Origin: a bacterium | Lineage (GTDB): Bacteria; Patescibacteriota; Minisyncoccia; Phycocordibacterales; CAIZLB01 | NCBI GenBank assembly: GCA_037127815.1 | Contig: JBAXXP010000004.1 | Location: forward strand, 4,647 to 68,646 | Direction: 5' to 3' | DNA: 64,000 bases | Part shown: positions 3,190 to 60,443 of the stretch, piece after piece | Layout of the letters: each line of letters begins with the position of its first letter | How positions within the stretch are numbered: the stretch's first letter is position 1 | Program-made: the position numbers and the translations under genes | The notes under the pieces: model-generated | The model's database searches: none | What the model saw: the letters and a program-made list of their open reading frames with translations, nothing else | Told to the model about the DNA's origin: nothing

Positions 3190-4221
3190 ATGACAAACGA
3201 AATTCTTGAATTTTTGATCAAAGGTGGTGTTTTTTCAGTATCAGAGATATACGAATACATAATAACTAAAGAGGTGACGTCAGCCGTTTCTGTAAAGAGA
3301 CTTCTTTCAAAGTTGGTGGTGCAGGGTTTTTTAATCAAATCTGGAAAAGGTAGGTCTGTTAAATATCAAATATCAACTCTTGGACGCCTAAATTTGGAAA
3401 TTGATATTGAAAAATATTGTAGTATTGAGGTGGACAAAAGAGTTGGTCTTCGCGATTATAATTTTGAACTGTTTGATTCGCTACCAGAAAGTTTTTTTTC
3501 TAAGGAGGAAATTAAGGAACTAGATTCTGCAAGTAAAAAATATCATAAAAAAATTCTAAATGTTTCTGAAGTAATTCATAAAAAAGAATTAGAACGTTTC
3601 GTTATTGAACTTTCTTGGAAGTCATCCAAAATAGAAGGAAATACCTATACACTTTTGGATACAGAGAAATTACTTAAGGACGGTATCGAGGCTAAGGGAA
3701 AAACGAAAGACGAGGCTGTTATGATTATCAACCATAAAAATGCCTTTGATTTCATATATAAAAATAAAAATATGTTTAAGGAGGTTTCTGTATCAAAAAT
3801 AGAAGATGTACATAAGATTTTGATAAAGGATCTGGGTGTTACAAACAACCTAAGGTCAAACCCCGTTGGAGTTTTGGGTTCAAAGTATAAACCCTTGGAT
3901 AATAAATTTCAAATTGAGGAATCGGCAGAAAAATTATGTAAAGCTATATCTAAAATGGCTGATGTCTATAGTAAGGCGCTTTTCTTGATTATTGGGATAA
4001 GTTATATACAACCTTTTGAAGACGGCAATAAAAGAACCTCTAGGCTCATGGGGAATGCTATATTACTTACATATGGTTTGGCTCCACTATCATATAGGAT
4101 TGTTGATGAAGAAACATACAGGGAGTCGGTAATGGTTTTTTATGAGCTAAATTCCATAGCATCATTCAAGAAAATATTTTTTGAGCAATATATTTTCTCA
4201 ACAGAAAATTACTTGATTTAA
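3190..4221 (+). CDS. Fic/DOC family protein with N-terminal winged-helix-like region; class II inhibitory motif present, catalytic motif degenerate
   Basis: SKIEGNT matches the [ST]xxxE[GN] Fic inhibitory helix motif. The Fic core motif position reads QPFEDGNKRTSR instead of HPFx[DE]GNGRxxR, so His is replaced by Gln and the second Gly by Lys. Confidence 0.75.
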   Translation: MTNEILEFLIKGGVFSVSEIYEYIITKEVTSAVSVKRLLSKLVVQGFLIKSGKGRSVKYQISTLGRLNLEIDIEKYCSIEVDKRVGLRDYNFELFDSLPESFFSKEEIKELDSASKKYHKKILNVSEVIHKKELERFVIELSWKSSKIEGNTYTLLDTEKLLKDGIEAKGKTKDEAVMIINHKNAFDFIYKNKNMFKEVSVSKIEDVHKILIKDLGVTNNLRSNPVGVLGSKYKPLDNKFQIEESAEKLCKAISKMADVYSKALFLIIGISYIQPFEDGNKRTSRLMGNAILLTYGLAPLSYRIVDEETYRESVMVFYELNSIASFKKIFFEQYIFSTENYLI

Positions 4222-32655: not shown

Positions 32656-33048
32656 ATGATAAAAGATTTTGATAAATGGAACAGAAGAAAAAAGGCGATT
32701 GAGGATTCTGATTGCGAGGTATTATTTAGAACAAAGGAAATTTGGTGGTGTTATGTTGGCTTGAACATTAAAATTGAGTCGTGTGGAAAGGGTGATGATT
32801 ATAAACGCCCTGTACTTGTGTTGAGAAAATTATCTGCAAAAGGTTTCATTGGGATACCTCTTTCAACGCAAGCTAAGAAGGGCTCATGGTTCGTAGATTT
32901 AGAAGTGAATGGTAAAAAAGGATGTGCCCTTATTTATCAAATTAAAATGTTTAGCTCCAGTCGTATGTATTGGAGAATCTCAGTTCTTGATGATTCAAGT
33001 TTTGAAAGTGTAAAAGAAAAGCTCAGGTTGTTACTTGAGCTTTTCTAA
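32656..33048 (+). CDS. MazF/PemK-family toxin-like protein (divergent)
   Basis: EIWWCYVG...DYKRPVLVL...IGIPLSTQAK...ALIYQIKMFSSSR aligns with the MazF DIVWVDFD...HRPAVVL...CVPCTTQSK...ALADQVKSIAWRAR blocks. Confidence 0.5.
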   Translation: MIKDFDKWNRRKKAIEDSDCEVLFRTKEIWWCYVGLNIKIESCGKGDDYKRPVLVLRKLSAKGFIGIPLSTQAKKGSWFVDLEVNGKKGCALIYQIKMFSSSRMYWRISVLDDSSFESVKEKLRLLLELF

Positions 33049-34485: not shown

Positions 34486-36954
34486 ATGGCAAAAAAGATA
34501 GAAACAACAGTTGAAGTAGTTCCAGTAAACTCAGACAAAATTCAAGACAGAAATCTAACTGTGGAAATGAAGAAGTCATATATTGACTATGCCATGTCTG
34601 TTATTACAGACCGTGCACTTCCTGATATTAGAGATGGACTTAAGCCAGTTCACCGTCGTATTCTTTATGCTATGAGTGGTATGCGTCTTACTGCATCTGC
34701 AAAAACTGTAAAGTCAGCAAAGGTGGTTGGAGACGTTATGGGTAATTATCACCCTCATGGAGACGTTGCTATCTATATGTCTATGGTTAACATGGCTCAA
34801 ACTTTTTCAATGCGTTACCCATTGATAATTGGTCAAGGTAACTTTGGAACAGTTGATGGTGATCCACCTGCTGCTATGCGTTATACCGAGGCTAAAATGT
34901 CACGTCTTTCATCTGAGCTGTTGAGAGATATAAATAAGCAAACAGTTAACTTCGTTCCTAATTACGATGGTTCGGCAAAAGAACCTACTGTTTTACCTAC
35001 TGTTGTTCCAAACCTTTTGTTAAATGGAGTTTTGGGTATTGCTGTTGGAATGGCAACAAACTTTCCACCCCATAACTTAAGAGAGGTTGTTGATGCCACA
35101 ACTCATTTAGTTGATAATCCAGATTCCTCATCTGAAGATTTGTTAGAATTTGTGAAAGGACCAGATTTTCCGCTAGGAGGTGTTGCTTATAATGAAAAGG
35201 ATATTGCCGCAGCACTCATTCACGGAAGAGGAGGAGTTGTTGTTCGTGGTGAGGCTGAAATTGTTGAAGAGAAAGCTGGTCAATCTAAAATTATAATTAC
35301 GTCAATTCCTTATAGAGTAAATAAGTCTACTCTTATTGAAGCTATTGCTGACTTGGTTCGTGAAAAGAAACTTGAAGGTATTAAAGATCTACGCGATGAA
35401 TCAACAAAAGATATTAGAGTTGTTATTGAATTGAAGAGTGGAAGTTATCCTCAAAACATTCTTAACTTTTTGTATAAGCATACTCAACTTGAATCAACAT
35501 TTCACTACAACATGGTTGCACTTGTTGAGGGTGTTCCACAAACTCTTTCACTTAAGACTTGTCTTGAAGAGTTTATTAAACATAGAAAGGAGGTTGTAAG
35601 AAGAAGAACAGAATTTGATCTAAAAGAAGCACAAGATAGAGAGCATATATTACTTGGTCTTAAGAAAGCATTGGATCATATCGATGCAATTATTAAAACT
35701 ATTAAAGCATCAAAAGATACTCCTACAGCTCACGTTAACTTGATGAAGGAATTTAAATTCTCAGATAGACAAGCAACCGCCATCTTGGAAATGAAGCTTC
35801 AAAGACTTGCTGGTTTGGAGAGAAAGAAAATTGAGGATGAATTAAAGGCCGTTCAAGCATTTATTAAAGAGTGTGAAGATATTCTAAAAAATCCAAAAAG
35901 AGTTCTAAAAATAATCAAGGACGAGCTTGCAGATATTAGAGAAAGATTTGGTGATAATAGAAGGACAAAAATCATTAAGCATGCTGCAAAAAACTTCTGT
36001 ATTGAGGATGTTATTCCTGATGAAGAAAGTGTTCTTGTATTAACTAGTGGAGGGTATATCAAGAGAACTGATCCTGATGAATACAAGAAGCAAAGAAGAG
36101 GTGGTGTTGGTGTTGTTGACCTTGATACAAAGGAAGAAGATTTTATAACTCATCTTATAACAACCACAACTCATAGTGATTTATTATTCTTTACAGATAA
36201 GGGTAAGGCGTATCAAATTAAAATGTACGATATTCCTGAGGGAAAGCGTGCTACTCGTGGAAAATCAATAATGAACTTCTTGTCACTTTCTGATAATGAG
36301 AAAGTAACTTCAGTTCTTCCGATGCCAAAGCAAATTAAAAAAGGCGGAGGACTAAGTCTATTTTTGATTACAAAACAAGGAACTGGAAAGAAGGTTTCTA
36401 TTGAAAGTTTCCTTGATGTTAGAAGAAGTGGAATTATTGCAATTAGACTTGATCCTAATGATGAATTAGTCTCTGCATCATTTGTTGAAAAGAAGGATTC
36501 GGTAATGGTTGTTGCATCAGATGGTCAATCTATTAGATTTGATGAGGGCGATGTTAGAGAGATGGGACGCTCTGCTGGTGGGGTACGTGTTATGAAATTG
36601 GATAAGGATGTAAGCGTTGTTGGGGCTGACACAATTGCAAAAGATGTAACTGATGCATATGTAATGGTTATGTCTTCAAATGGATATGGAAAGAAAACTC
36701 CAATTAAAGAATATAAGATTCAAGGAAGAGGAGGTTCTGGAATTAAAACTGTAAAGGTTACCCCAAAGACTGGAGATTTGATTTCTGCAAGAATCCTGAC
36801 AGCAGAACTTGAAGAACTTGTTGCAATTTCAAAGAAAAGCCAGGTTATTAGATGTGATCTAAAGGAGGTACCAGCACTTGGGCGTGATACACAAGGAGTG
36901 AGAATTATGAAGTTAAGAGAAGGTGATAGTTTGGCTTCATTGATCTGTCTATAA
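34486..36954 (+). CDS. gyrA: DNA gyrase subunit A
   Basis: [24 protein letters not shown] (active-site Tyr region), and a GyrA-box-like QRRGGVG in the C-terminal beta-pinwheel. Confidence 0.88.
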
Positions 36955-36983
36955 AAAATTTGCTTCAAAATTAGGAAATCCCA

Positions 36984-37814
36984 GTGATAATACTGGGGTT
37001 TTTTATTACTTGCAAAATTAATAAAAAAAGAGCAATATTCAAAAGGATCCAAAACAACAAAGGAGGCTTTGTGGACAATGATACTAATAATAGAACAAAA
37101 ACGAACAAAGAAAGAAGGAAGGAAGAAAAGGAGGAAAGAGAGACGCTTAAGATATTTCCAGTAGTCCAATTGACTTGGAGCCGATTACCCAGAATAGTTG
37201 TCATCGATTGGAAGAATATTAGGTCTCGTGAATACAGGCTTGATCATCTAACCAACGGTGAATTGAATGCTTTCTGGCACATGGATGCAAACGCCAAGAT
37301 TGATTATTTGATTAGATGTTTCAATCGTCATCACAGGAGGCCTAGATGTCAAAAAGGCGTAACGGAGTGTCATAATTTATCGTATGTCGATATTGAGTCA
37401 CATACAAGTTACAATAAGCTGATTTTTGTCATTTCCAGATGGTTCAAAATGTCAGAGGCGGAAGTCAAAACTAAGCATATTGCTATTTTTTTGAAAAAGG
37501 TCTATCCGTCACTGGAGAGACTTATGACAAACCCTGTGACGCGAAAGATGAAGAGTCTGAAAAGTTTGCTGCATACTGGTAGTTTTAATAAGTTGAGTCC
37601 CGCTTTTATTGGGAATGTTGCAAAGTGGGCTGGTATAAAATTTGGAGCAGTTCATGCAAATGATATTCGGCGATTCATTACACAGATTTACCTAGCACTT
37701 AAAAGGATTGCATACGATCACTCCTTGGGTAGACTGAAGACTTTACCTGCGTTCATTAAGGTGCTGAATAAAATTTGGATACCGAGAGATTGCCAAATAA
37801 TTTTGAAACTCTGA
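36984..37814 (+). CDS. Hypothetical protein with highly basic N-terminal region (276 aa; true start probably internal)
   Basis: ORF only. Contains a KKRAIFKRIQNNK...KERRKEEKEERE tract. Confidence 0.35.
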   Translation: MIILGFFITCKINKKRAIFKRIQNNKGGFVDNDTNNRTKTNKERRKEEKEERETLKIFPVVQLTWSRLPRIVVIDWKNIRSREYRLDHLTNGELNAFWHMDANAKIDYLIRCFNRHHRRPRCQKGVTECHNLSYVDIESHTSYNKLIFVISRWFKMSEAEVKTKHIAIFLKKVYPSLERLMTNPVTRKMKSLKSLLHTGSFNKLSPAFIGNVAKWAGIKFGAVHANDIRRFITQIYLALKRIAYDHSLGRLKTLPAFIKVLNKIWIPRDCQIILKL

Positions 37815-37851
37815 TGGAATGCTCGTAACAACGGATCAGGGGTGAATATTC

Positions 37852-37880
37852 ATCGCGCAGGCATTCCATGCCTGCGCGAT
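37852..37880 (+). terminator. 13-bp perfect hairpin ATCGCGCAGGCAT-TCC-ATGCCTGCGCGAT + ATTTCGTTT
   Basis: Lies 38 bp after the 37814 stop, inside the annotated 5' extension of the next ORF. Confidence 0.6.
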
Positions 37881-37973
37881 ATTTCGTTTACTGATTTATC
37901 TACAGATTATGATCTATCAACAAAATTTAAAAAATACAGATATTTTGTATTTTACTTGTGCTATAATATTTAC

Positions 37974-38507
37974 ATGAGTTTTGTTAAACCTGAAAAAACA
38001 TTGCAGGACATGAATATTGCAGAAGGAATGACTGTTGCTGATTTTGATGCAGGCGCAGGGTACTACACTATGGCTCTTGCAAAAAAAGTTGGACAGTATG
38101 GTAAGGTTTTTGCAATTGATACTAGGGCGGATTTGTTGACAAGGATTGCAAATGAGTCAAAGCTTTTAAATCTTAAAAATGTTGAAGTCATAAGAGGGGA
38201 CGTAGAATCGTTAAACGGCTCAGGACTCTCCAAAGAAAGTGTGGATAGAGTTATTTTAGCAAATACATTGTTTGTGTGTGATCATCCTGAGAAAGTGGTT
38301 AAAGAGGCCATTAGGATATTGAAGAAAAAAGGTAAGATCGGTGTAATAGATTGGATAGACTCATCTAATCAAATTGGTCCACATCCAGACTGTGTTGTTT
38401 CAAAGAAACATGTAACAGCTTGGTTTGCAAAAGAGAACTTAATTTTAGAGAAAGAATTTGATGCAGGGGACTATCATTATGGACTAGTGTTTAAATTTGT
38501 AGATTAA
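37974..38507 (+). CDS. Class I SAM-dependent methyltransferase (Methyltransf_11/25-like)
   Basis: The VADFDAGAGYYTMALA glycine-rich SAM motif and the VILANTLF motif. Start placed at the internal Met (MSFVKPEK) because a terminator hairpin occupies the upstream part of ORF 37842..38507. Confidence 0.7.
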   Translation: MSFVKPEKTLQDMNIAEGMTVADFDAGAGYYTMALAKKVGQYGKVFAIDTRADLLTRIANESKLLNLKNVEVIRGDVESLNGSGLSKESVDRVILANTLFVCDHPEKVVKEAIRILKKKGKIGVIDWIDSSNQIGPHPDCVVSKKHVTAWFAKENLILEKEFDAGDYHYGLVFKFVD

Positions 38508-38523
38508 GTTATAATATTTACGT

Positions 38524-39870
38524 ATGAACAAATCATCAAGCCCATTTCAAATTATATTTATAGGAGTATTTATATTTGCAGCCATTGTTGGAGTTATAAT
38601 CTTTTCTGCGTTTACTAACTCTTCAAATAATACTGCTGTAAAAGCAACTATCTGGGGAACAGAGGCTGAGGCTGATTTCAAAAATCTCCTTGCAATAATC
38701 GATCCTCAAAAAAAAGCGATGGATGTAACTTATGTACAAAAAAGTGCTGATACATTTGAAGCAGAATTTGTTAATGCATTAGCTGAAGGAAAAGGACCAG
38801 ACATTGTTTTAATTGATGATTCAAAAATTTTCTCTTGGAAGGGCAAGCTACAGCCTATTCCGTTTAAAACATTGCCTCAAAGAACATTCTCAGACACTTT
38901 TATAGATGCTGCAAACATCTTTGTAATGGCAGATGGAATTTATGCACTACCTTTAAACGTTGATCCTTTGGTTATGTATTGGAATAAGACCATGTTTAGC
39001 GATGGTGGAATTGTGTTGCCGCCAAAAACATGGCAACAGCTCACAGCTTCAATTCCAAGTTTAACTCAAAGAACTGATAGATCAGAAATTATAAAATCTG
39101 CTGTCGCCCTAGGGGAGTCTTCCAATATTGACCACTCCAAAGAAATTTTTATTAATTTAATGCTTCAAGGCGGAAACAATTTAGTAGAGTTTGACCCTGC
39201 CGTAAGTAGATATATGTCTACCGTAGATGTACTTTCTCCAAGTGGCACAAATATTTTTGAAGCAGCCACAAATTTCTATACTTCATTTTCAAATCCTAAT
39301 AATGAGAGATATTCATGGAATAAATCTCTGGTAAGATCAAGAGATTATTTCATTTCTGGAAATCTAGGAATGTACTTTGGTTTTGCAAGTGAATATCCTG
39401 TTCTACAAAGAAAGAATCCTAATCTTAACTTTGATGTTGCTCTTATGCCACAAGATGAGTTAAGGTCTGCAAATGTACAATCTGCATCGTACGCTAAAAT
39501 AAATGCTCTAGCTCTTGTCAAACAATCAAGAAATCAAGCTGCTGCAATAAGTGTAATGACACAATTGGTTGCCTCAGTTGCTCAGGCAGAGTTTGTAAAA
39601 ATAACAAACTTGCCTTCTGCCAGAAGAGATCTGCTTCAAGTGCCAAATGGTGAGAACGTGTACATAGATATTTTTGGTAAAGCGGCTATTCAAGCTAAGA
39701 CGTGGTATGACCCAAGCTCCACTGCGACCGATTCAATTTTTAGAGAATTAATTGACACAATTACAACGGGTAAAATAACAAGTGGAGAGGCTAGAAATAT
39801 TTTGAATCAGAAGCTTCAGGCTCTTGTCTCAGGGGCAAGCCCAAGTAGTGTTAATTCTACAGGGAATTAA
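38524..39870 (+). CDS. Extracellular solute-binding protein-like (ABC-type, family 1-like), membrane-anchored
   Basis: N-terminal TM/signal anchor followed by a periplasmic-binding-protein-like domain of about 400 aa. No permease or ATPase gene is adjacent. Confidence 0.5.
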   Translation: MNKSSSPFQIIFIGVFIFAAIVGVIIFSAFTNSSNNTAVKATIWGTEAEADFKNLLAIIDPQKKAMDVTYVQKSADTFEAEFVNALAEGKGPDIVLIDDSKIFSWKGKLQPIPFKTLPQRTFSDTFIDAANIFVMADGIYALPLNVDPLVMYWNKTMFSDGGIVLPPKTWQQLTASIPSLTQRTDRSEIIKSAVALGESSNIDHSKEIFINLMLQGGNNLVEFDPAVSRYMSTVDVLSPSGTNIFEAATNFYTSFSNPNNERYSWNKSLVRSRDYFISGNLGMYFGFASEYPVLQRKNPNLNFDVALMPQDELRSANVQSASYAKINALALVKQSRNQAAAISVMTQLVASVAQAEFVKITNLPSARRDLLQVPNGENVYIDIFGKAAIQAKTWYDPSSTATDSIFRELIDTITTGKITSGEARNILNQKLQALVSGASPSSVNSTGN

Positions 39871-39916
39871 TATATAGAATATGTTACAATTTAGATAATT
39901 ATAATAATAGATAGAT

Positions 39917-40378
39917 TTGATGAAAATAATAAAAAATAAATTATTGAAAAAGGAAAACTTTGCGAAAAGCAAAAATACAGTTTGGTCTACCTTGTTGACA
40001 CTTGCGGTTGTATTATTTGGTTTTCTAAATGTTAGCAAAGTTTTTGCGCAAAGTACGGGTTCAAACCCTGTTTCAAATCTTTTACTTATCTGTACAACCC
40101 GATCAACTCCATGTGGATGGCAAGATTTAATTAATTTAATAAATGCCATGGTTCAATATGCTATTGAGTTAATAGGTATAGTCTTTGTTATAGTTCTATT
40201 GTATGCGGGTATGATGTATATAACTTCTGGTGGAGATGCATCAAAGGTTAAGAAAGCTAAGGATATGTTGTATAAAGTTGTTTGGGGAATGGTATATACC
40301 CTTTGTGCTTGGATTATTGTATACTTTATACTAACAAGCTTAGGCGTTGACCAAACTTTTTACGAAAAAATTATATAA
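39917..40378 (+). CDS. T4SS pilin-like (TrbC/VirB2-family-like) protein, paralog 1 of 6
   Basis: Cleavable signal peptide (...VSKVFAQS), then two hydrophobic helices separated by SGGDASKVKKAKDMLYKVVWGMVY, which is pilin-like two-TM topology. Confidence 0.6.
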   Translation: MMKIIKNKLLKKENFAKSKNTVWSTLLTLAVVLFGFLNVSKVFAQSTGSNPVSNLLLICTTRSTPCGWQDLINLINAMVQYAIELIGIVFVIVLLYAGMMYITSGGDASKVKKAKDMLYKVVWGMVYTLCAWIIVYFILTSLGVDQTFYEKII

Positions 40379-40387
40379 CAACATAAA

Positions 40388-40777
40388 ATGAAAAACACTA
40401 GATTAATCTTATTCATGGTTACAGGAGCTTTAATGCTTCTTGTTATCTTTGGTGTAGACTTTATAACCGCCCACTCAATTGCTTTTGCTCAAATAAATGA
40501 TGGTAAAATTCATAACCCCCTTGGTTCAACAACAACTCTCAGTCAGGTGCTTGGCATTGTTATATCTTCCGTTCAGGTTATTGCTGGAGTTTTGTCTGTT
40601 GTTTTCATTATAATCGCAGGTCTTAAGTTTGTATTGGCAAATGGTGATCCTGCAAAGATAAAGACAGCTAAATCAATGCTGCTTTATGTTGTAATAGGTA
40701 TTGCGATAATATTCGGTGCTCAGGCTATTGCCATAGTAGTTCAGACAACAATTAAGCAGGTTGGTAGCGGGCAATAA
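40388..40777 (+). CDS. T4SS pilin-like protein, paralog 2 of 6
   Basis: Signal peptide ending AFAQI; two TM helices with NGDPAKIKTAKSMLLYVVIGIAIIFG between them. Confidence 0.6.
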   Translation: MKNTRLILFMVTGALMLLVIFGVDFITAHSIAFAQINDGKIHNPLGSTTTLSQVLGIVISSVQVIAGVLSVVFIIIAGLKFVLANGDPAKIKTAKSMLLYVVIGIAIIFGAQAIAIVVQTTIKQVGSGQ

Positions 40778-40829
40778 AGTGTTTTACATCATCAGTCAAA
40801 TAAGACTATTATCAATATAATTTAAAAAA

Positions 40830-41144
40830 ATGTTAGAAAGTAAAAATTCACTCTTAGCTCAGGTTGGTAATGTAACAGACCTGAAAAGCCTTGTAGTTGG
40901 CATGATAGATATATTAGGAAGTTACGTTGTACCATTCATCGTTGCATTAGCACTTGTAGTTTTTTTGTGGGGAATATTTAGAACCATGACAGCTGCTGGC
41001 GATGGTAAGAAAAGACAGGAGGGTCTGGCATATATTACATACGGGATAATAGGCTTGGCTGTTATGATTTCAGTTTGGAGTTTGGTATATCTTCTAACCA
41101 CTACATTCTTTTCAGGCGGATTGATGATACCTCAGCTAAATTAA
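40830..41144 (+). CDS. T4SS pilin-like protein, paralog 3 of 6
   Basis: FLWGIFRTMTAAGDGKKRQEGLAYITYGIIGLAVMISVWSLVYLLTTTF is the shared core. Confidence 0.6.
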   Translation: MLESKNSLLAQVGNVTDLKSLVVGMIDILGSYVVPFIVALALVVFLWGIFRTMTAAGDGKKRQEGLAYITYGIIGLAVMISVWSLVYLLTTTFFSGGLMIPQLN

Positions 41145-41186
41145 TCTGATACATGGTAATATGATTATTATTAATTATAAAATACA

Positions 41187-41486
41187 ATGACAGGAGAAAT
41201 AGGAGCAAAGGGAGTAATAGTATTTCTAATTTCATTTATAAATGGAGTTGTAGGTTTTATAATAGGCCTAACTCTAGTTGTCTTTATATGGGGACTTTTC
41301 AAATTGATTTTTGCGAGCAGTGATTCAAAAGAGAGAGAGACGGCTAAAGGGTATATAGTTTGGGGAATTATCTCATTAGCTATCATGGTCTCTGTATGGG
41401 GGCTAGTTAATTTATTAACCTCATCTTTTGGTTTTGGTAGTGTTACTCCAATGGTGCCGGGATTCCCAAATACTTCTATATTTTAG
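41187..41486 (+). CDS. T4SS pilin-like protein, paralog 4 of 6
   Basis: FIWGLFKLIFASSDSKERETAKGYIVWGIISLAIMVSVWGLVNLLTSSF. Confidence 0.6.
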   Translation: MTGEIGAKGVIVFLISFINGVVGFIIGLTLVVFIWGLFKLIFASSDSKERETAKGYIVWGIISLAIMVSVWGLVNLLTSSFGFGSVTPMVPGFPNTSIF

Positions 41487-41605
41487 AATCCACAGTTTTT
41501 CTTTAATTGTGTATATAACTTTTAAATAATAGGGTATAATAGTATTAAGTGACGTTTATGTTGCTTAGTAAAAGATAACTTAGTATTTAATAAAATAATT
41601 TAATT

Positions 41606-41929
41606 ATGACAAATTCAACAACTGGAATTAGTGGACTTTACGGCCTTTTGGCCCAAGCTACTGATTTCACAAATAGACTTATTCCCTTTATCATTGGTCT
41701 TACTGTACTATTTTTCCTATGGGGTATTTTTAGATTGGTATTCTCAGCTAAGGATTCCGAAGCTAGAACAGAAGCTAGAGGCTATATAATTTGGGGGATT
41801 ATAGCTCTTGCTGTTATGGTTTCTGTATGGGGACTAGTTAACCTTTTAACAAGCACATTCAGTCTAAATCAAAATATTCCATCAGGTCCTGGTCTACCAC
41901 AAGCAGGAGGTTCAATTCAGCTTAAATAG
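41606..41929 (+). CDS. T4SS pilin-like protein, paralog 5 of 6
   Basis: FLWGIFRLVFSAKDSEARTEARGYIIWGIIALAVMVSVWGLVNLLTSTF. Confidence 0.6.
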   Translation: MTNSTTGISGLYGLLAQATDFTNRLIPFIIGLTVLFFLWGIFRLVFSAKDSEARTEARGYIIWGIIALAVMVSVWGLVNLLTSTFSLNQNIPSGPGLPQAGGSIQLK

Positions 41930-41945
41930 TAATTTATAACTAATT

Positions 41946-42239
41946 ATGTCAGGAACTGTACCACCAGCATTGATGACCCTTATAACCTCAATTAGTAGGT
42001 ATATTCTTAATCCACTTATTGTACTTGCTTTCGCGGTAGCTATGGTTGTTTTCACATGGGGAGTTTTTGATTATATAAAAGGAGCTTCAGATCCAAAAGC
42101 TAGAGAAACAGGCAGGAGTCACATTTTATGGGGTATTATTGGTATCGCTATTATGTTTTCTGTTTTTGGAATAATGAGAGTTATTTCAAACACAGTTGGA
42201 GGTCCGACAAGTCAGATTCAGAATATACAGAAGCTCTAG
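41946..42239 (+). CDS. T4SS pilin-like protein, paralog 6 of 6
   Basis: FTWGVFDYIKGASDPKARETGRSHILWGIIGIAIMFSVFGIMRVISNTV. Confidence 0.6.
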   Translation: MSGTVPPALMTLITSISRYILNPLIVLAFAVAMVVFTWGVFDYIKGASDPKARETGRSHILWGIIGIAIMFSVFGIMRVISNTVGGPTSQIQNIQKL

Positions 42240-42372
42240 AGACTCAAATAAAACAGCACGTACAAATTGTATATGCTGTTTTGTTTTTGATGGGCGAGGA
42301 AATATAGTCTTGAAAAGTGCTCTACTTTTAACAAAATAAAAATACACAGACTTGCGTCTGTGTATTTTTTCT

Positions 42373-42391
42373 GTGGGCGAGGAAGGACTCG
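42373..42391 (-). repeat. 19-nt near-identical copy (18/19) of the tRNA-Leu 3' end, preceded by its own hairpin terminator
   Basis: GTGGGCGAGGAAGGACTCG here versus GTGGGCGAGGAGGGACTCG in the tRNA. A shorter copy TGGGCGAGGA lies at 42291-42300, also directly after a hairpin plus T-run. Confidence 0.65.
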
Positions 42392-42554
42392 GTGCATACT
42401 GCCCCAGTACACCTTTGCAATTTTATCGAATCTTTCAGGTTCTCAAAATATAGCAAAGCTTTTCTCGTCCCTCACGTATGTGCCTCAAAGCACACCCTCT
42501 CTCCCTTCATATTAAACAAAACAACATACACGGGTGTGTATGTTGTTTTGTTTA

Positions 42555-42639
42555 TGGTGGGCGAGGAGGGACTCGAACCCTCAATCCTTACGGAACTAGT
42601 TCCTAAGACTAGCGCGTATACCAATTCCGCCACTCGCCC
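42555..42639 (-). tRNA. tRNA-Leu (anticodon TAG), CCA encoded
   Basis: Reverse complement reads GGGCGAGTGGCGGAATTGGTATACGCG-CTAGT-CTTAGGA-ACTAG plus a long variable arm, then GAGGGTTCGAGTCCCTC-CTCGCCCACCA. Confidence 0.85.
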
Positions 42640-42735
42640 ATATTTATGATTCTTCTGAATTTAAGAATTCAATATTTATATAATACCAGAAGATGTTTTA
42701 AGATCCTATAGTATTATAGAGTTATTGAACTCTTG

Positions 42736-42808
42736 TCCGCCCGGTAGGATTCGAACCTACGACCGTTCACTTAAGAGGCGACTGCTCTACCAACTGAGCT
42801 ACGGGCGG
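42736..42808 (-). tRNA. tRNA-Lys (anticodon CTT)
   Basis: Reverse complement reads CCGCCCGTAGCTCAGTTGGTAGAGCA-GTCGC-CTCTTAA-GTGAA-CGGTC-GTAGGTTCGAATCCTAC-CGGGCGGA. The D-arm matches tRNA-Lys. There is one G.A mismatch at the top of the anticodon stem. Confidence 0.7.
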
Positions 42809-42907
42809 ATATGTTCACAATAGTACCAAGAAAGTGCACAAAATACAACCTCCCTTATCCTAATCATTGTTATCTCCTTGTGCTACCACTCCTTATTACC
42901 CTTACTA

Positions 42908-44239
42908 TTATCGCCTTAGCCCTTTAGCAGAAGCCTCGCCGGCAACAAAACCTGTTGTCCAGCATAACTGAAGGCTAAAGCCTCCAGAAGGCCTGTCAAC
43001 GTTCAGTATATCGCCAACAAGGTATAGGTTGGGGAATAGGCGAGAGGACATGGTTTTAAAATCGACCTCATCAAGAGAAACTCCTCCGCTTGTAATTATT
43101 GCCTTGTCCACTCCCAGCAGTTTTTCAACATGAAGTGGTACATCCTTTAGTAGATTTATAAGTCTGATTCTCTCTTCTCTGGTAATGCTATTGCAGGCCT
43201 TTTCTGGATCAATTAATGATAGATCTACAATGATGGGTGCGACAGCAGAAGGTACGATATTTACAAGAGCATTTCTAAATTTCTTTTTATCATGTTCTTT
43301 AAATAGCTCTTGAAGTTTAGTATTTAAAACTCCATAGTCTTCTGATGGTAATAGGTCTAAGGAGACAGTAACTTCTCCATACTTCAGAAGATCTCCAATA
43401 TCTCTACTCATATTTAGTATTGTTGGTCCACTTACGCCCACGTGTGTGAAAAGAATTTTTCCCTTCTTAAAGAAATGTTTTTTACCATTTTGAAAAATGG
43501 AAATCTTTATATCTGTCATGCTAATACCAGCTAATTTTGGAACCCACTCGTCTTTTATTGCTAGTGGAACAAGTGAGGGAATAGGGTCAATTACAGTATG
43601 TCCTATACTTTTTAGCCACACAAAGCCATCGCCGGTTGAGCCGGTAAGAGGAGCGGAAGCACCACCGGTTGCAATGACTACACTTTTTCCATATATCACT
43701 TTTTTGCCCTTTAGTGTTATTCCAACTATTTTTCTAGTTGCAACTTCATCATTCTCTACAGCAATACCCATAACTGGGGAGTTGGATAAAACTTCAACTT
43801 TATTTTCTCTCATGTAATTCACTAGTACGTCCAAGACGGATTGTGATTTATTCGAAACAGGGAAGGTTCGTAATTCATTTTCTACCTTTGTCTCCATTCC
43901 GTATTTGTGAAAGAAATCCAGCGAGTCTTTTACACTATGTTGCGAGAAAGCAGAGAATAAAAATTTACCATCGTCTTTAAATCTTTCTAGAAACTTTCTA
44001 ATATCAAATTCCGAGTTTGTAACATTGCATCTTCCTCCTCCTGTAATTAAAAGTTTTCTACCTAGTGTTTCATTTTTTTCAATAAGAAGAACCTTAGCGC
44101 CACATTCTGCTGCTCTTCCTGCCGATATCATGCCAGCAGGTCCACCACCTACTACTATTACGTCCCATGGGGTATTAGTTTCCATTGAGGTTATATTAGC
44201 ATTTTTTGCTCGTTGACCCAAATAGATAGTAAAATACAT
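42908..44239 (-). CDS. HI0933/BaiN-family NAD(P)/FAD-dependent oxidoreductase
   Basis: WDVIVVGGGPAGMISAGRAAECGAKVLLIEKNETLGRKLLITGGGRCNVTN matches the N-terminus of this family. The true start is probably the internal Met near 44185. Confidence 0.8.
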   Translation of the reverse strand: MYFTIYLGQRAKNANITSMETNTPWDVIVVGGGPAGMISAGRAAECGAKVLLIEKNETLGRKLLITGGGRCNVTNSEFDIRKFLERFKDDGKFLFSAFSQHSVKDSLDFFHKYGMETKVENELRTFPVSNKSQSVLDVLVNYMRENKVEVLSNSPVMGIAVENDEVATRKIVGITLKGKKVIYGKSVVIATGGASAPLTGSTGDGFVWLKSIGHTVIDPIPSLVPLAIKDEWVPKLAGISMTDIKISIFQNGKKHFFKKGKILFTHVGVSGPTILNMSRDIGDLLKYGEVTVSLDLLPSEDYGVLNTKLQELFKEHDKKKFRNALVNIVPSAVAPIIVDLSLIDPEKACNSITREERIRLINLLKDVPLHVEKLLGVDKAIITSGGVSLDEVDFKTMSSRLFPNLYLVGDILNVDRPSGGFSLQLCWTTGFVAGEASAKGLRR

Positions 44240-47122: not shown

Positions 47123-47485
47123 ATGTATATACCTGAACAAGGAAATATTATCAAACTAAACTTCAATCCAATTAAAGGACACGAGCAAGGTGGATACAGA
47201 CCGGCTGTAGTAATAACCAAAAAGATATATAATTCTAAATCTAATACTATTTTGATTTGTCCAATCACTAGTAAAATTAAGAATTATCCGTATGAAGTGA
47301 CCATCGAGATGGAGGGGTTCACTGATAACGATAATCTGGGATTGGTGAGCGACATTTCCGGAGTAGTATTAACAGACCATATTAAGTCTGCAGACTATAA
47401 AGCAAGAAAAGTTAATTTTTCAGGTAGATTGAAAGAGATTGTTGTGTGGAATATTTTAGCTAAAATTAAAACTTTGATAGATTAA
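47123..47485 (+). CDS. MazF/PemK-family endoribonuclease toxin
   Basis: GNIIKLNFNPIKGHEQGGYRPAVVITKK...ILICPITSK matches the MazF GDIVWVDFDPTKGSEQAGHRPAVVLS...CVPCTTQ blocks. Confidence 0.75.
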   Translation: MYIPEQGNIIKLNFNPIKGHEQGGYRPAVVITKKIYNSKSNTILICPITSKIKNYPYEVTIEMEGFTDNDNLGLVSDISGVVLTDHIKSADYKARKVNFSGRLKEIVVWNILAKIKTLID

Positions 47486-53721: not shown

Positions 53722-54348
53722 ATGCGAACATATGTATTTATTGATGCCTCAAATTTATTTTATGGTGGTAGAAAATCTCTCGGGTGGAGTATTGATCATG
53801 AAAAATTAGCATTGTATTTTAAGTCTAAGTATGAAGCGAATAAGGTCTATTATTTTGGAGGTGTTGAAATACATGATTTTCCATTTGATTATATAAAGAA
53901 TGAAACTGTACCAATAAATGACGTTTCAATTTATTTGGTAGATTTCATTGAAAAAAATAAGTATAACTTATCTGATGTAATTATAACTCTTATAAATAGA
54001 TATTTAAAAAGAATCAGATTCTACATGAAATTGGAGAAATTTGGATATATTCTTGTTCTTAAGCCAGTAAAGACTCATGTGGATGGAAAAGGCATAAGTC
54101 AGAAAAAGGCGAATTGTGATGTGGATATGACCCTTTATTTGATACGTTACAAAGATGATTATGATAGAGCTTTGGTTCTTACGGGGGATGGAGACTTTTT
54201 ATCAGCGCTCAAATATTTACGAGACAATAATAAAGAAGTTCTAGTGTTAGCAAGATCTCCACGCACAGCAAAAGAAATAAAAAAGTTTGCTGGAGATAAG
54301 TTTTTGGACTTTGAGTTCCTAAGGGAAATAATCAGGATGGATGAATAG
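53722..54348 (+). CDS. NYN/LabA-like domain protein, paralog 2 of 3
   Basis: MRTYVFIDASNLFYGG, ANCDVDMTLYLI, and VLTGDGDFLSALKYLRDNNKEVLVLARSPRTAKEI. Close paralog of 437..1105. Confidence 0.7.
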   Translation: MRTYVFIDASNLFYGGRKSLGWSIDHEKLALYFKSKYEANKVYYFGGVEIHDFPFDYIKNETVPINDVSIYLVDFIEKNKYNLSDVIITLINRYLKRIRFYMKLEKFGYILVLKPVKTHVDGKGISQKKANCDVDMTLYLIRYKDDYDRALVLTGDGDFLSALKYLRDNNKEVLVLARSPRTAKEIKKFAGDKFLDFEFLREIIRMDE

Positions 54349-59819: not shown

Positions 59820-60443
59820 TTGTTTGGTGATAGAATAACTGGATACATGAATATATTTTTACTGATTGATGGTGAGAATTTGAAAGGAAAAATTAAAGCT
59901 ATTTTTAAGGAAAATGGTAAAGAAAAACCCGTCTGGCATGAGTATGATTTTAGGGGCCTGTTTGATAAAGTGCTTGGAGGTATGACTGTTGGCCGCAGTA
60001 TCTTTTATTTCGCTCGTATTAAGGAGCATAAGGAAAGTATGCATAAATCTAAGGAATTGATTGAAGAGCAACGCCAACTTAAGACACATCTTGAAAAACA
60101 AGGATTTGAAGTTATTTTGAGTGGGCAGGTTAGAGGTCATATGGAGACTAGTAGAGATGGTAAGCAGGCACTGATATTTAAGGAGAAGGGTGTAGATGTA
60201 AAATTGGCTGTTGATATGGTAAGTCTTTCTTGTGACAAGAAAGTTGATGAAATAATCCTTGGTAGCTCAGACTCTGACCTGCAACCAGCCATAAAAGAGG
60301 TTCGTGATAGAAATATAGGTTGCATATACTTAGGGTTTGAAGCAAAACCAAACAAGGGTATTTCCTACAATTCGAATAGAACAATTCTTATAAGAGACTC
60401 TGAAGTCTTTGATTTTGAAAGAATTCAACAAAAACTTGTATAG
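59820..60443 (+). CDS. NYN/LabA-like domain protein, paralog 3 of 3 (more divergent)
   Basis: IFLLIDGENLKGK N-terminus, GVDVKLAVDMV, and ILGSSDSDLQPAIKEV at the positions of the NYN Asp motifs. Confidence 0.6.
   Translation: MFGDRITGYMNIFLLIDGENLKGKIKAIFKENGKEKPVWHEYDFRGLFDKVLGGMTVGRSIFYFARIKEHKESMHKSKELIEEQRQLKTHLEKQGFEVILSGQVRGHMETSRDGKQALIFKEKGVDVKLAVDMVSLSCDKKVDEIILGSSDSDLQPAIKEVRDRNIGCIYLGFEAKPNKGISYNSNRTILIRDSEVFDFERIQQKLV

Follow-up and report, generated by a model that had tools for sequence, protein, structure and literature searches.

We examined positions 38524-42239 of a 64-kb stretch of bacterial DNA (the window, by which we mean that whole stretch), where a run of small pilin-like genes lies behind the gene for a solute-binding protein (SBP). 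All genes of this region are on the + strand. An open reading frame (ORF) of 448 amino acids (aa) at 38524-39870 is followed by six + strand ORFs at 39917-42239, which are 153, 129, 104, 99, 107, and 97 aa long in that order and 9 to 119 nucleotides (nt) apart. An earlier reading of this DNA, which we call the original prediction, had proposed six tandem pilin-like paralogs of a type IV secretion system (T4SS) behind an SBP, and it had both their coordinates and their lengths right. Together with a small methyltransferase (MTase) gene just upstream, the module is listed below. P1 to P6 are the pilins, classes A, B, M, and Z are described in the next section, and the scores come from hidden Markov models (HMMs).

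37974..38507, + strand: small class-I S-adenosylmethionine (SAM)-dependent MTase; Methyltransf_31/11/25; 177 aa by gene callers
38524..39870, + strand: membrane-anchored SBP, family-1 carbohydrate type; PDB profile matches and precomputed PF13416/PF01547
39917..40378, + strand: pilin P1, class A; PF18895 33.3 bits
40388..40777, + strand: pilin P2, class B; PF18895 31.4 bits, TrbC PF04956 27.6 bits
40830..41144, + strand: pilin P3, class M; PF18895 35.6 bits, class-M HMM 99 bits; two hydrophobic segments
41187..41486, + strand: pilin P4, class M, leaderless; PF18895 36.0 bits, class-M HMM 98.5 bits
41606..41929, + strand: pilin P5, class M, penultimate position; PF18895 36.5 bits
41946..42239, + strand: pilin P6, class Z; PF18895 35.9 bits, class-Z HMM 117 bits

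The pilin assignment held for the whole set. In a Pfam scan, 6/6 proteins passed the gathering cut-off of PF18895 (T4SS_pilin; 26.6 bits) with scores of 31.4 to 36.5 bits. The second family to which the original prediction had pointed, PF04956 (TrbC/VirB2; cut-off 27.9 bits), was approached but not reached. P2 scored 27.6 bits (E = 3.5e-6), just below the cut-off, P1 scored 16.8 bits, and P3 to P6 gave no match. All six also matched NCBIfam NF045849, the family of the pilin-like conjugal transfer protein Mbov_0395 from a Mycoplasma integrative and conjugative element (ICE), over nearly the full 80-position model (25.3 to 34.5 bits; E = 1e-8 to 9e-6). Since these scores fall below the equivalog cut-off of 40 bits, the six are related to this family but are not members of it. 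An iterated HMM built from the six pilins found no further member in the window, and tblastn of P2 and P6 against 72,556 plasmids returned no match.

Hydropathy gave the same picture in every copy, namely two hydrophobic helices connected by a loop with three or four K/R residues, which agrees with the predicted topology. The AlphaFold2 model of P5 is a helical hairpin (H9-46/H51-85) with a predicted local distance difference test (pLDDT) score of 72.8. An extra N-terminal hydrophobic segment is present only in P1 (ending VFA/QS, with the slash marking the putative cleavage point) and P2 (ending AFA/QI). Both of these leaders show n-, h-, and c-regions, and P3 to P6 have no leader. This pattern is in line with the signal peptides that had been proposed for the first two copies, and their cleavage would fit a P-x4-A-Q motif that is conserved class-wide. 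Identity is 37 to 56% among P3 to P6 and 20 to 26% for P1 and P2, both to each other and to the rest. The near-invariant W-G-I-I core that had been ascribed to all six copies is a feature of P3 to P6 and does not extend to P1 and P2. We are confident that the six genes are VirB2-like pilin-family genes.

Conserved order and classes of the array

One genome per GTDB species was scanned with the SBP alignment, and at least 547 species genomes encode an SBP relative. The best 80 of these at least 547 loci were fetched, and 83 non-redundant loci (referred to by L numbers) were compared, with 66 complete arrays among them. Pilin-like ORFs directly follow the SBP on the same strand in 78/83 loci, and with the same kind of array recurring this often, its conservation is far above chance. 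The copy-number comparison that the original prediction had suggested gave a range of 3 to 8 genes per complete array (3 copies in 1 array, 4 in 3, 5 in 18, 6 in 27, 7 in 15, and 8 in 2), with a mode of 6.

Class HMMs for the first, second, middle, and last copies were trained on half the genomes and applied to the other half, where 191 of 193 pilins were assigned to their own positional class. Arrays follow the scheme A-B-(M)n-Z, and that of the window reads A-B-M-M-M-Z. P1 scored 112.7 bits with the class-A HMM and no more than 57 bits with the other classes. Its best cross-genome match lay at position 1 in 56/65 genomes; for P2 this was position 2 (56/65), for P6 the last position (61/65), and for P3 to P5 the middle positions. 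In six-copy genomes the middle copies were position-specific too (25/26, 18/25, and 23/26), and the nearest relative was a paralog from the same genome for only 8 of 77 middle copies.

Each class carries marks of its own. Class A is always first and has a predicted signal peptide, an invariant Cys pair, and then the two-helix hairpin; in P1 the pair is C59 and C66, and it is invariant in 28 orthologs. Class B, always second, has a predicted signal peptide and an invariant N-P motif and is the most TrbC/VirB2-like class. PF04956 was matched at an E value of 1e-3 or lower by 22/28 class-B orthologs and by 7/28 class-A orthologs, while all 56 class A and B orthologs tested matched PF18895. Class M occupies the middle, and copy-number differences between species are confined to it. 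Class Z is always last, short, and free of a signal peptide, with a conserved “ILNPLI” N-terminus. The tails, which had been described as wholly different between copies, do differ between paralogs but are conserved among orthologs of the same position. We are confident that the array consists of four anciently diverged, position-fixed subunit classes.

Two longer ORFs were encountered among the related loci, one of 243 aa (L047:12556-13287) and one of 354 aa (L088:12094-13158). They gave roughly double scores with the iterated pilin HMM (156 and 183 bits), and the 243-aa ORF contains two PF18895 stretches in Pfam. These are apparently natural fusions of adjoining middle pilins, which would fit neighbours in one assembly, although an assembly error is possible.

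The original prediction had taken the divergence of the copies as a sign of a variable surface-filament repertoire, with possible roles in host attachment, DNA uptake, or antigenic variation. On this view the paralogs would be alternative pilins for antigenic variation or for matching host strains. A survey of Patescibacteria arrays likewise proposes host-range or antigenic versatility (Quinonero-Coronel et al. 2025, PMC12102498), and the VirB2 expansions of Bartonella and Anaplasma offer a precedent. The strong divergence of the paralogs (20 to 56% identity) and a middle-class copy number that differs by species, giving 3 to 8 genes per array, would suit this idea. However, every position has its own ortholog in distant genomes, across a range in which GyrA is about 69% identical, and class-specific tail motifs are conserved. 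Divergence rates are also like those of neighbouring genes. Compared with the window, positional orthologs had median identities of 31 to 41% (pilins), 38.5% (SBP), 42% (MTase), and 69% (GyrA), and in nearer relatives the identities of P5 and the SBP are 82 versus 78%, 80 versus 68%, and 57 to 60 versus 42 to 44%. The pilins diverge no faster than the adjoining SBP and MTase.

Six independent assemblies are 100% identical over 3 to 20 kb, a comparison that shows no variation and cannot measure selection. Several public assemblies, among them GCA_964417855.1 with its 80,005-bp contig CAYQJB010000004.1, match the window at 100% identity. The absence of any sequence or copy-number difference among the six assemblies is not what an antigenic-variation cassette would give; nor are there silent cassettes or repeats, or the homogenization that a higher figure than 8/77 would have indicated. 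Because the classes are fixed, the divergence is neighbour-like, and the assemblies are identical, antigenic variation or a variable repertoire is disfavoured, and we consider it quite improbable.

The missing leaders of the later copies have an explanation in the orthologs. In more distant genomes, P5 orthologs (e.g., L009:13150-13521 and L010:13231-13599) keep a canonical Sec signal peptide, while P5 of the window, L007, and L012 begins at about the mature N-terminus, and the 119-nt spacer before it (41487-41605) is full of stop codons. Since orthologs keep the leader while this spacer is full of stops, the M copies of the window (P3 to P5), like those of L007 and L012, have lost their leader secondarily, a trait of this clade rather than a sign of decay. 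The lack in P3 to P6 of a leader that relatives have, together with the stop-filled gap, could otherwise be taken to mean that these ORFs are pseudogenes or remnants of one gene, and fragments of one degraded gene were an outcome that the original prediction had allowed for. What we found instead were six intact full-length ORFs with family-wide conserved cores and orthologs in dozens of species. The leaderless state is common to the related species L007 and L012 (P5 80 to 82% identical), and transcripts of the orthologous array are known from a cultivated relative (see below). We give decay or lack of expression next to no weight. P5 is the best-conserved copy and a candidate for the major subunit.

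The surrounding block and the tRNA-Leu slot

The flanking features that bear on the limits of the array are the following.

34486..36954, + strand: gyrA; precomputed Pfam DNA_topoisoIV/DNA_gyraseA_C; upstream of the module in 66/83 loci
42246..42286, + strand: hairpin with 20-nt arms that are 85% complementary, then a T-run, just past the P6 stop codon
42246-42301, 42338-42384, and 42513-42568: three units of a hairpin plus a tRNA 3'-end, which include a 33-nt repeat (88% identical)
42555..42639, - strand: tRNA-Leu(tag), conserved downstream neighbour of the array

The window is a housekeeping stretch of chromosome with LepA, LeuRS, TsaD, FtsZ/FtsA, HisRS, S1, GyrA, PriA, Def/Fmt, MreB, BipA, and seven tRNAs. 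SBP homologs came from metagenome-assembled genomes (MAGs) labelled Paceibacterota, Parcubacteria, Zambryski-, Taylor-, Nomura-, and Campbellbacteria, and Minisyncoccia. We are confident that the source organism is a Patescibacterium of the class Paceibacteria, in agreement with the earlier assignment to the Candidate Phyla Radiation (CPR). Upstream of the pilins, the syntenic order in the relatives is HisRS, signal peptidase, Pth, S1, a Lactamase_B_3 protein, GyrA, the SAM-methyltransferase, and the SBP; downstream it continues with tRNA-Leu(tag), tRNA-Lys(ctt), tRNA-Leu(taa), tRNA-Cys, and RbfA/IF-2.

The MTase precedes the SBP in 68/83 loci. Its maximal ORF starts at 37842 and the gene-caller start is at about 37974; against NCBIfam it gave only generic matches, far under the cut-offs. 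Median gaps are 8.5 nt between MTase and SBP, about 2 nt between the SBP and the first pilin, and 18 nt between pilins. Because these gaps are tight compared with the 235 nt between GyrA and the MTase, the MTase, SBP, and pilins look like one transcription unit. We are confident that they form a conserved, operon-like unit of the core genome, of which the MTase is the first gene, and gyrA is probably a context gene in a separate transcription unit. The hairpin and T-run at 42246..42286, which belong to the first of the three hairpin-plus-tRNA units, are likely the operon terminator. A promoter and terminator scan of 36900-42950 gave the same counts as shuffled sequence. A strong 13-bp hairpin with 8 GC pairs was also noted at 37852-37880, between a 276-aa hypothetical ORF and the MTase start at about 37974. 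This hairpin is a possible terminator and would then define where the MTase-SBP-pilin unit begins.

The original prediction had noted that the array ends at a tRNA-Leu with att-like footprints, which could be read as the boundary of a mobile element. In the interval from P6 to tRNA-Leu(tag) (42240-42640), each of the three units consists of a hairpin and a copy of the tRNA-Leu(tag) 3'-end, and the units resemble traces that repeated rounds of integration and excision at this tRNA would leave. The tRNA-Leu(tag) and tRNA-Lys(ctt) that follow are conserved synteny, however. tRNA-Leu(tag) comes after the array in L007, L012, L009, L010, L015, L020, L026, L033, and L036 and also in the cultivated “Candidatus Yanofskyibacterium parasiticum,” with 0 to 3 variable genes between array and tRNA-Leu in relatives; in Yanofskyibacterium, this slot holds a restriction-modification/HNH island. 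In every relative examined the tRNA comes behind the array, which places the variable slot beyond the pilin genes, so that the array itself is not cargo. tRNA-Leu(tag) is an integration hot spot rather than the boundary of the array as a mobile unit.

Other genes in the wider region were noted in passing. The window encodes three NYN-domain proteins (437-1105, 53722-54348, and 59820-60443), a Fic protein (3190-4221), and two PemK-type toxins (32656-33048 and 47123-47485; PemK by precomputed annotation), all dispersed in the housekeeping region of a very small genome. About 7 kb past the 3' end of the window, a very long ORF (>1,686 aa; L091:9388-14445) that gave no Pfam match sits downstream of a MacAB-like HlyD/FtsX/ATP-binding cassette (ABC) exporter and may be a surface or adhesin protein.

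Proposed assembly of the array products

The reading that we prefer, with a probability of about 0.6, is that this core-genome VirB2-like array supplies distinct, non-interchangeable subunits which a T4SS encoded elsewhere assembles into a heteromeric surface structure. Each pilin would insert into the cytoplasmic membrane as a helical hairpin, P1 and P2 via Sec with signal-peptidase cleavage and P3 to P6 as leaderless hairpins. The K/R-rich loop would then face the cytoplasm, with the class-specific N- and C-tails outside. A VirB4-type T4SS encoded elsewhere in the genome would extract the subunits from the membrane and polymerize them into one pilus- or conduit-like structure of mixed composition, in which the classes might divide the labour between shaft and priming, tip, or base. 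The cell may use the assembled structure in host contact.

Work on cultivated relatives is consistent with this. In Yanofskyibacterium the order is GyrA (00755), MTase (00754), four PF18895 genes (00753-00750), and tRNA-Leu(tag) (00749) (PMC10936435 Supplementary Table S2). With expression given as log2(RPKM+1), where RPKM is reads per kilobase per million mapped reads, 4/4 of these pilins were transcribed at day 14 (8.6 to 10.8), and three stood at 10.7 to 10.9 at day 31 (PMC10936435). A TraC/VirB4-like ATPase (00739) was expressed as well (10.98 and 9.37); it is ten locus tags from the array, a distance for which contig boundaries are not given (PMC10936435). VirB4 of the Patescibacteria clade was found in 2,407 of 3,035 assemblies, near dnaA/dnaN in Paceibacteria (PMC12102498). 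Southlakia epibionticum has an essential series of predicted pilins within its T4SS cluster (Wang et al. 2023, PMC10633639), and in cultivated Minisyncoccaceae, T4SS pilins are among the top-expressed genes for secreted proteins. T4SS pilin arrays are among the few features of the envelope on which a cultivated Patescibacterium has been shown to depend for its epibiotic life.

Several observations weigh against assembly by a T4SS, or against a common function of the whole block. No VirB4, VirB6, or VirD4 was found in the 64-kb window, as the original prediction had noted for VirB4/VirB6-type machinery, or in about 7 to 8 kb past either end, and none of the 83 loci has a T4SS ATPase (VirB4-like) or channel gene at a distance of up to 10 kb from the module. 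The link to a T4SS in this genome comes from family membership and the literature. P3 to P6 lack the signal peptide typical of VirB2/TrbC. Against PDB sequences, the profile of the six paralogs found no solved conjugative pilin, and that of 28 class-B orthologs found no conjugative pilin either. To our knowledge, a pilus has never been observed in Paceibacteria. As for the SBP and MTase, the whole neighbourhood is syntenic housekeeping DNA, so that their adjacency need not imply a joint function. The Yanofskyibacterium module has no SBP (PMC10936435). In L069 (9469-13284; a Campbellbacteria MAG from a dolphin oral sample), FtsH takes the place of the pilin array behind the MTase and SBP; this locus has one pilin-like ORF only, about 4 kb upstream, and is the single clear exception among informative loci.

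Candidates for nearby machinery were examined and rejected. A 713-aa ORF without strong matches, considered as VirB4, is PriA, and an 834-aa protein upstream of the window is a tetratricopeptide repeat (TPR) protein beside MurJ. Large Walker-A proteins near the module elsewhere were ABC or SMC proteins, FtsH (L069), or a ClpB-type AAA protein (L095).

The SBP is 448 aa long with one N-terminal transmembrane (TM) segment at residues 10 to 28. Its family profile matched carbohydrate-type family-1 SBPs in the PDB (4r9f, 6e-16; 4qrz, 2e-14; MalE-like proteins), and precomputed annotation places PF13416/PF01547 on it and on most listed homologs. The neighbour named by the original prediction is therefore an SBP of the family-1 sugar type. 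A single-sequence Pfam scan of it gave no match, and its NCBIfam MalE match was weak. No ABC permease or ATPase adjoins the SBP in the window, nor do the 83 loci have any such family conserved at a distance of up to 10 kb. In the TM anchor (38524-38620), F8, Q9, F16, G23, and F27 are invariant in 19 homologs of 39 to 78% overall identity; such invariance is unusual for a plain anchor and may point to a specific intramembrane partner. A prepilin-like (class III) signal in this anchor, by analogy with the archaeal bindosome, was considered and rejected, as its sequence appears to offer neither a G/A at position -1 nor an E at +5.

An SBP without a nearby ABC partner, invariant anchor residues, tight spacing of MTase, SBP, and pilins in 78 loci, and no linked VirB4 in this clade would all fit a T4SS-independent membrane complex, in which hairpin proteins and the anchored SBP, perhaps with the MTase, serve substrate capture or uptake and do not form a pilus. 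Yet the SBP is missing from the otherwise identical Yanofskyibacterium module, L069 keeps the MTase and SBP without pilins, and a copy number of 3 to 8 is ill-suited to a fixed transporter. In addition, the family ties are to conjugative pilins, and the homologous S. epibionticum series lies inside a T4SS cluster (PMC10633639). We regard such a complex as unlikely. With pilins but no SBP in Yanofskyibacterium and an SBP but no pilins in L069, we rejected the SBP as an obligatory pilin partner and place it as a clade-specific member of the block.

Returning to the heteromeric, T4SS-assembled structure, a more detailed version of it is doubtful. Paceibacteria would make a heteromeric VirB2-type filament of four classes from a core operon that lies apart from the T4SS ATPase and includes a dedicated MTase and, in one large clade, a membrane-anchored SBP that binds carbohydrate. 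If this were true, it would amount to a division of labour like that of major and minor pilins, of a kind not known from conjugative-type pili. The SBP might then be a host-glycan receptor and the MTase a pilin-modifying enzyme, and the NF045849 similarity would imply that VirB2-like subunits are native to monoderm systems of the MPF-FATA (mating-pair formation, FATA) class and were not borrowed from diderms. A fixed set of four classes shifts the question from immune or host evasion to the assembly of a multi-subunit VirB2-type structure. Concrete targets for this are the Cys-pair domain of class A, the well-conserved M copy in the penultimate position, and the MTase linked to the array.

Comparison with known systems

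Tandem pilin arrays in Patescibacteria are already published, so that the novelty implied by the original prediction does not stand and our result for the window itself is mostly confirmatory. The survey counted 441 arrays of 2 to 11 VirB2-like pilin genes in 383 Patescibacteria assemblies, with a mean identity of 25% and a maximum of 54% (PMC12102498). Its array definition, two or more PF18895/PF04956 genes in tandem or one gene apart in a Patescibacteria genome, takes in the six adjoining genes described here. The window array resembles the published ones in its tandem PF18895/PF04956 genes, its low identity (20 to 56%), and its chromosomal location, and its six copies match S. epibionticum, for which a 2025 review describes six VirB2-like pilins that are conserved in structure and divergent in sequence. 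The S. epibionticum array differs in lying inside a T4SS cluster, whereas that of the window and of the 83 related loci is unlinked to virB4 and sits in a gyrA-MTase-(SBP)-pilins-tRNA-Leu core block. The survey stresses Microgenomatia and Saccharimonadia, and neither the SBP nor gyrA figures in it (PMC12102498). In the papers that we consulted, we saw no description of the four position-specific classes. The VirB2 expansions of Bartonella and Anaplasma are also tandem paralogs, but they are thought to serve antigenic or host-range variation, while the window array shows positional orthology and no variation.

With VirB2, TrbC, TraA, and TrwL of diderm T4SSs, the window pilins share small size, two hydrophobic helices, a basic loop, the predicted signal peptide of classes A and B, and similar sequence profiles, class B reaching or nearly reaching the PF04956 threshold. 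A classical diderm system has one major pilin and a VirB5 tip protein, encoded beside virB4 and virB6. In the window a single array holds four conserved classes, the tails are longer, four members have no leader, the cell is monoderm, and no machinery is linked. For the Mycoplasma ICE family of Mbov_0395 (NF045849), the points in common are a monoderm host and an MPF-FATA-type system; Patescibacteria VirB4 reportedly derives from this class. The Mycoplasma gene is on a mobile element, and the window pilins are in a chromosomal array. According to the survey, MPF-FATA systems are without VirB2 homologues, and the pilin was possibly co-opted from other T4SS classes (PMC12102498). The NF045849 match suggests that a monoderm relative of the Patescibacteria pilins exists, which bears on the origin of these pilins.

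Type IV pili and type II secretion systems offer an analogy only. Type IV pilins have an unrelated fold and machinery, with a class III signal peptide, PilD, and PilB, and there is no homology. The likeness is one of organization, in that diverged paralogs with a fixed order and cross-species conservation contribute to one filament with distinct roles.

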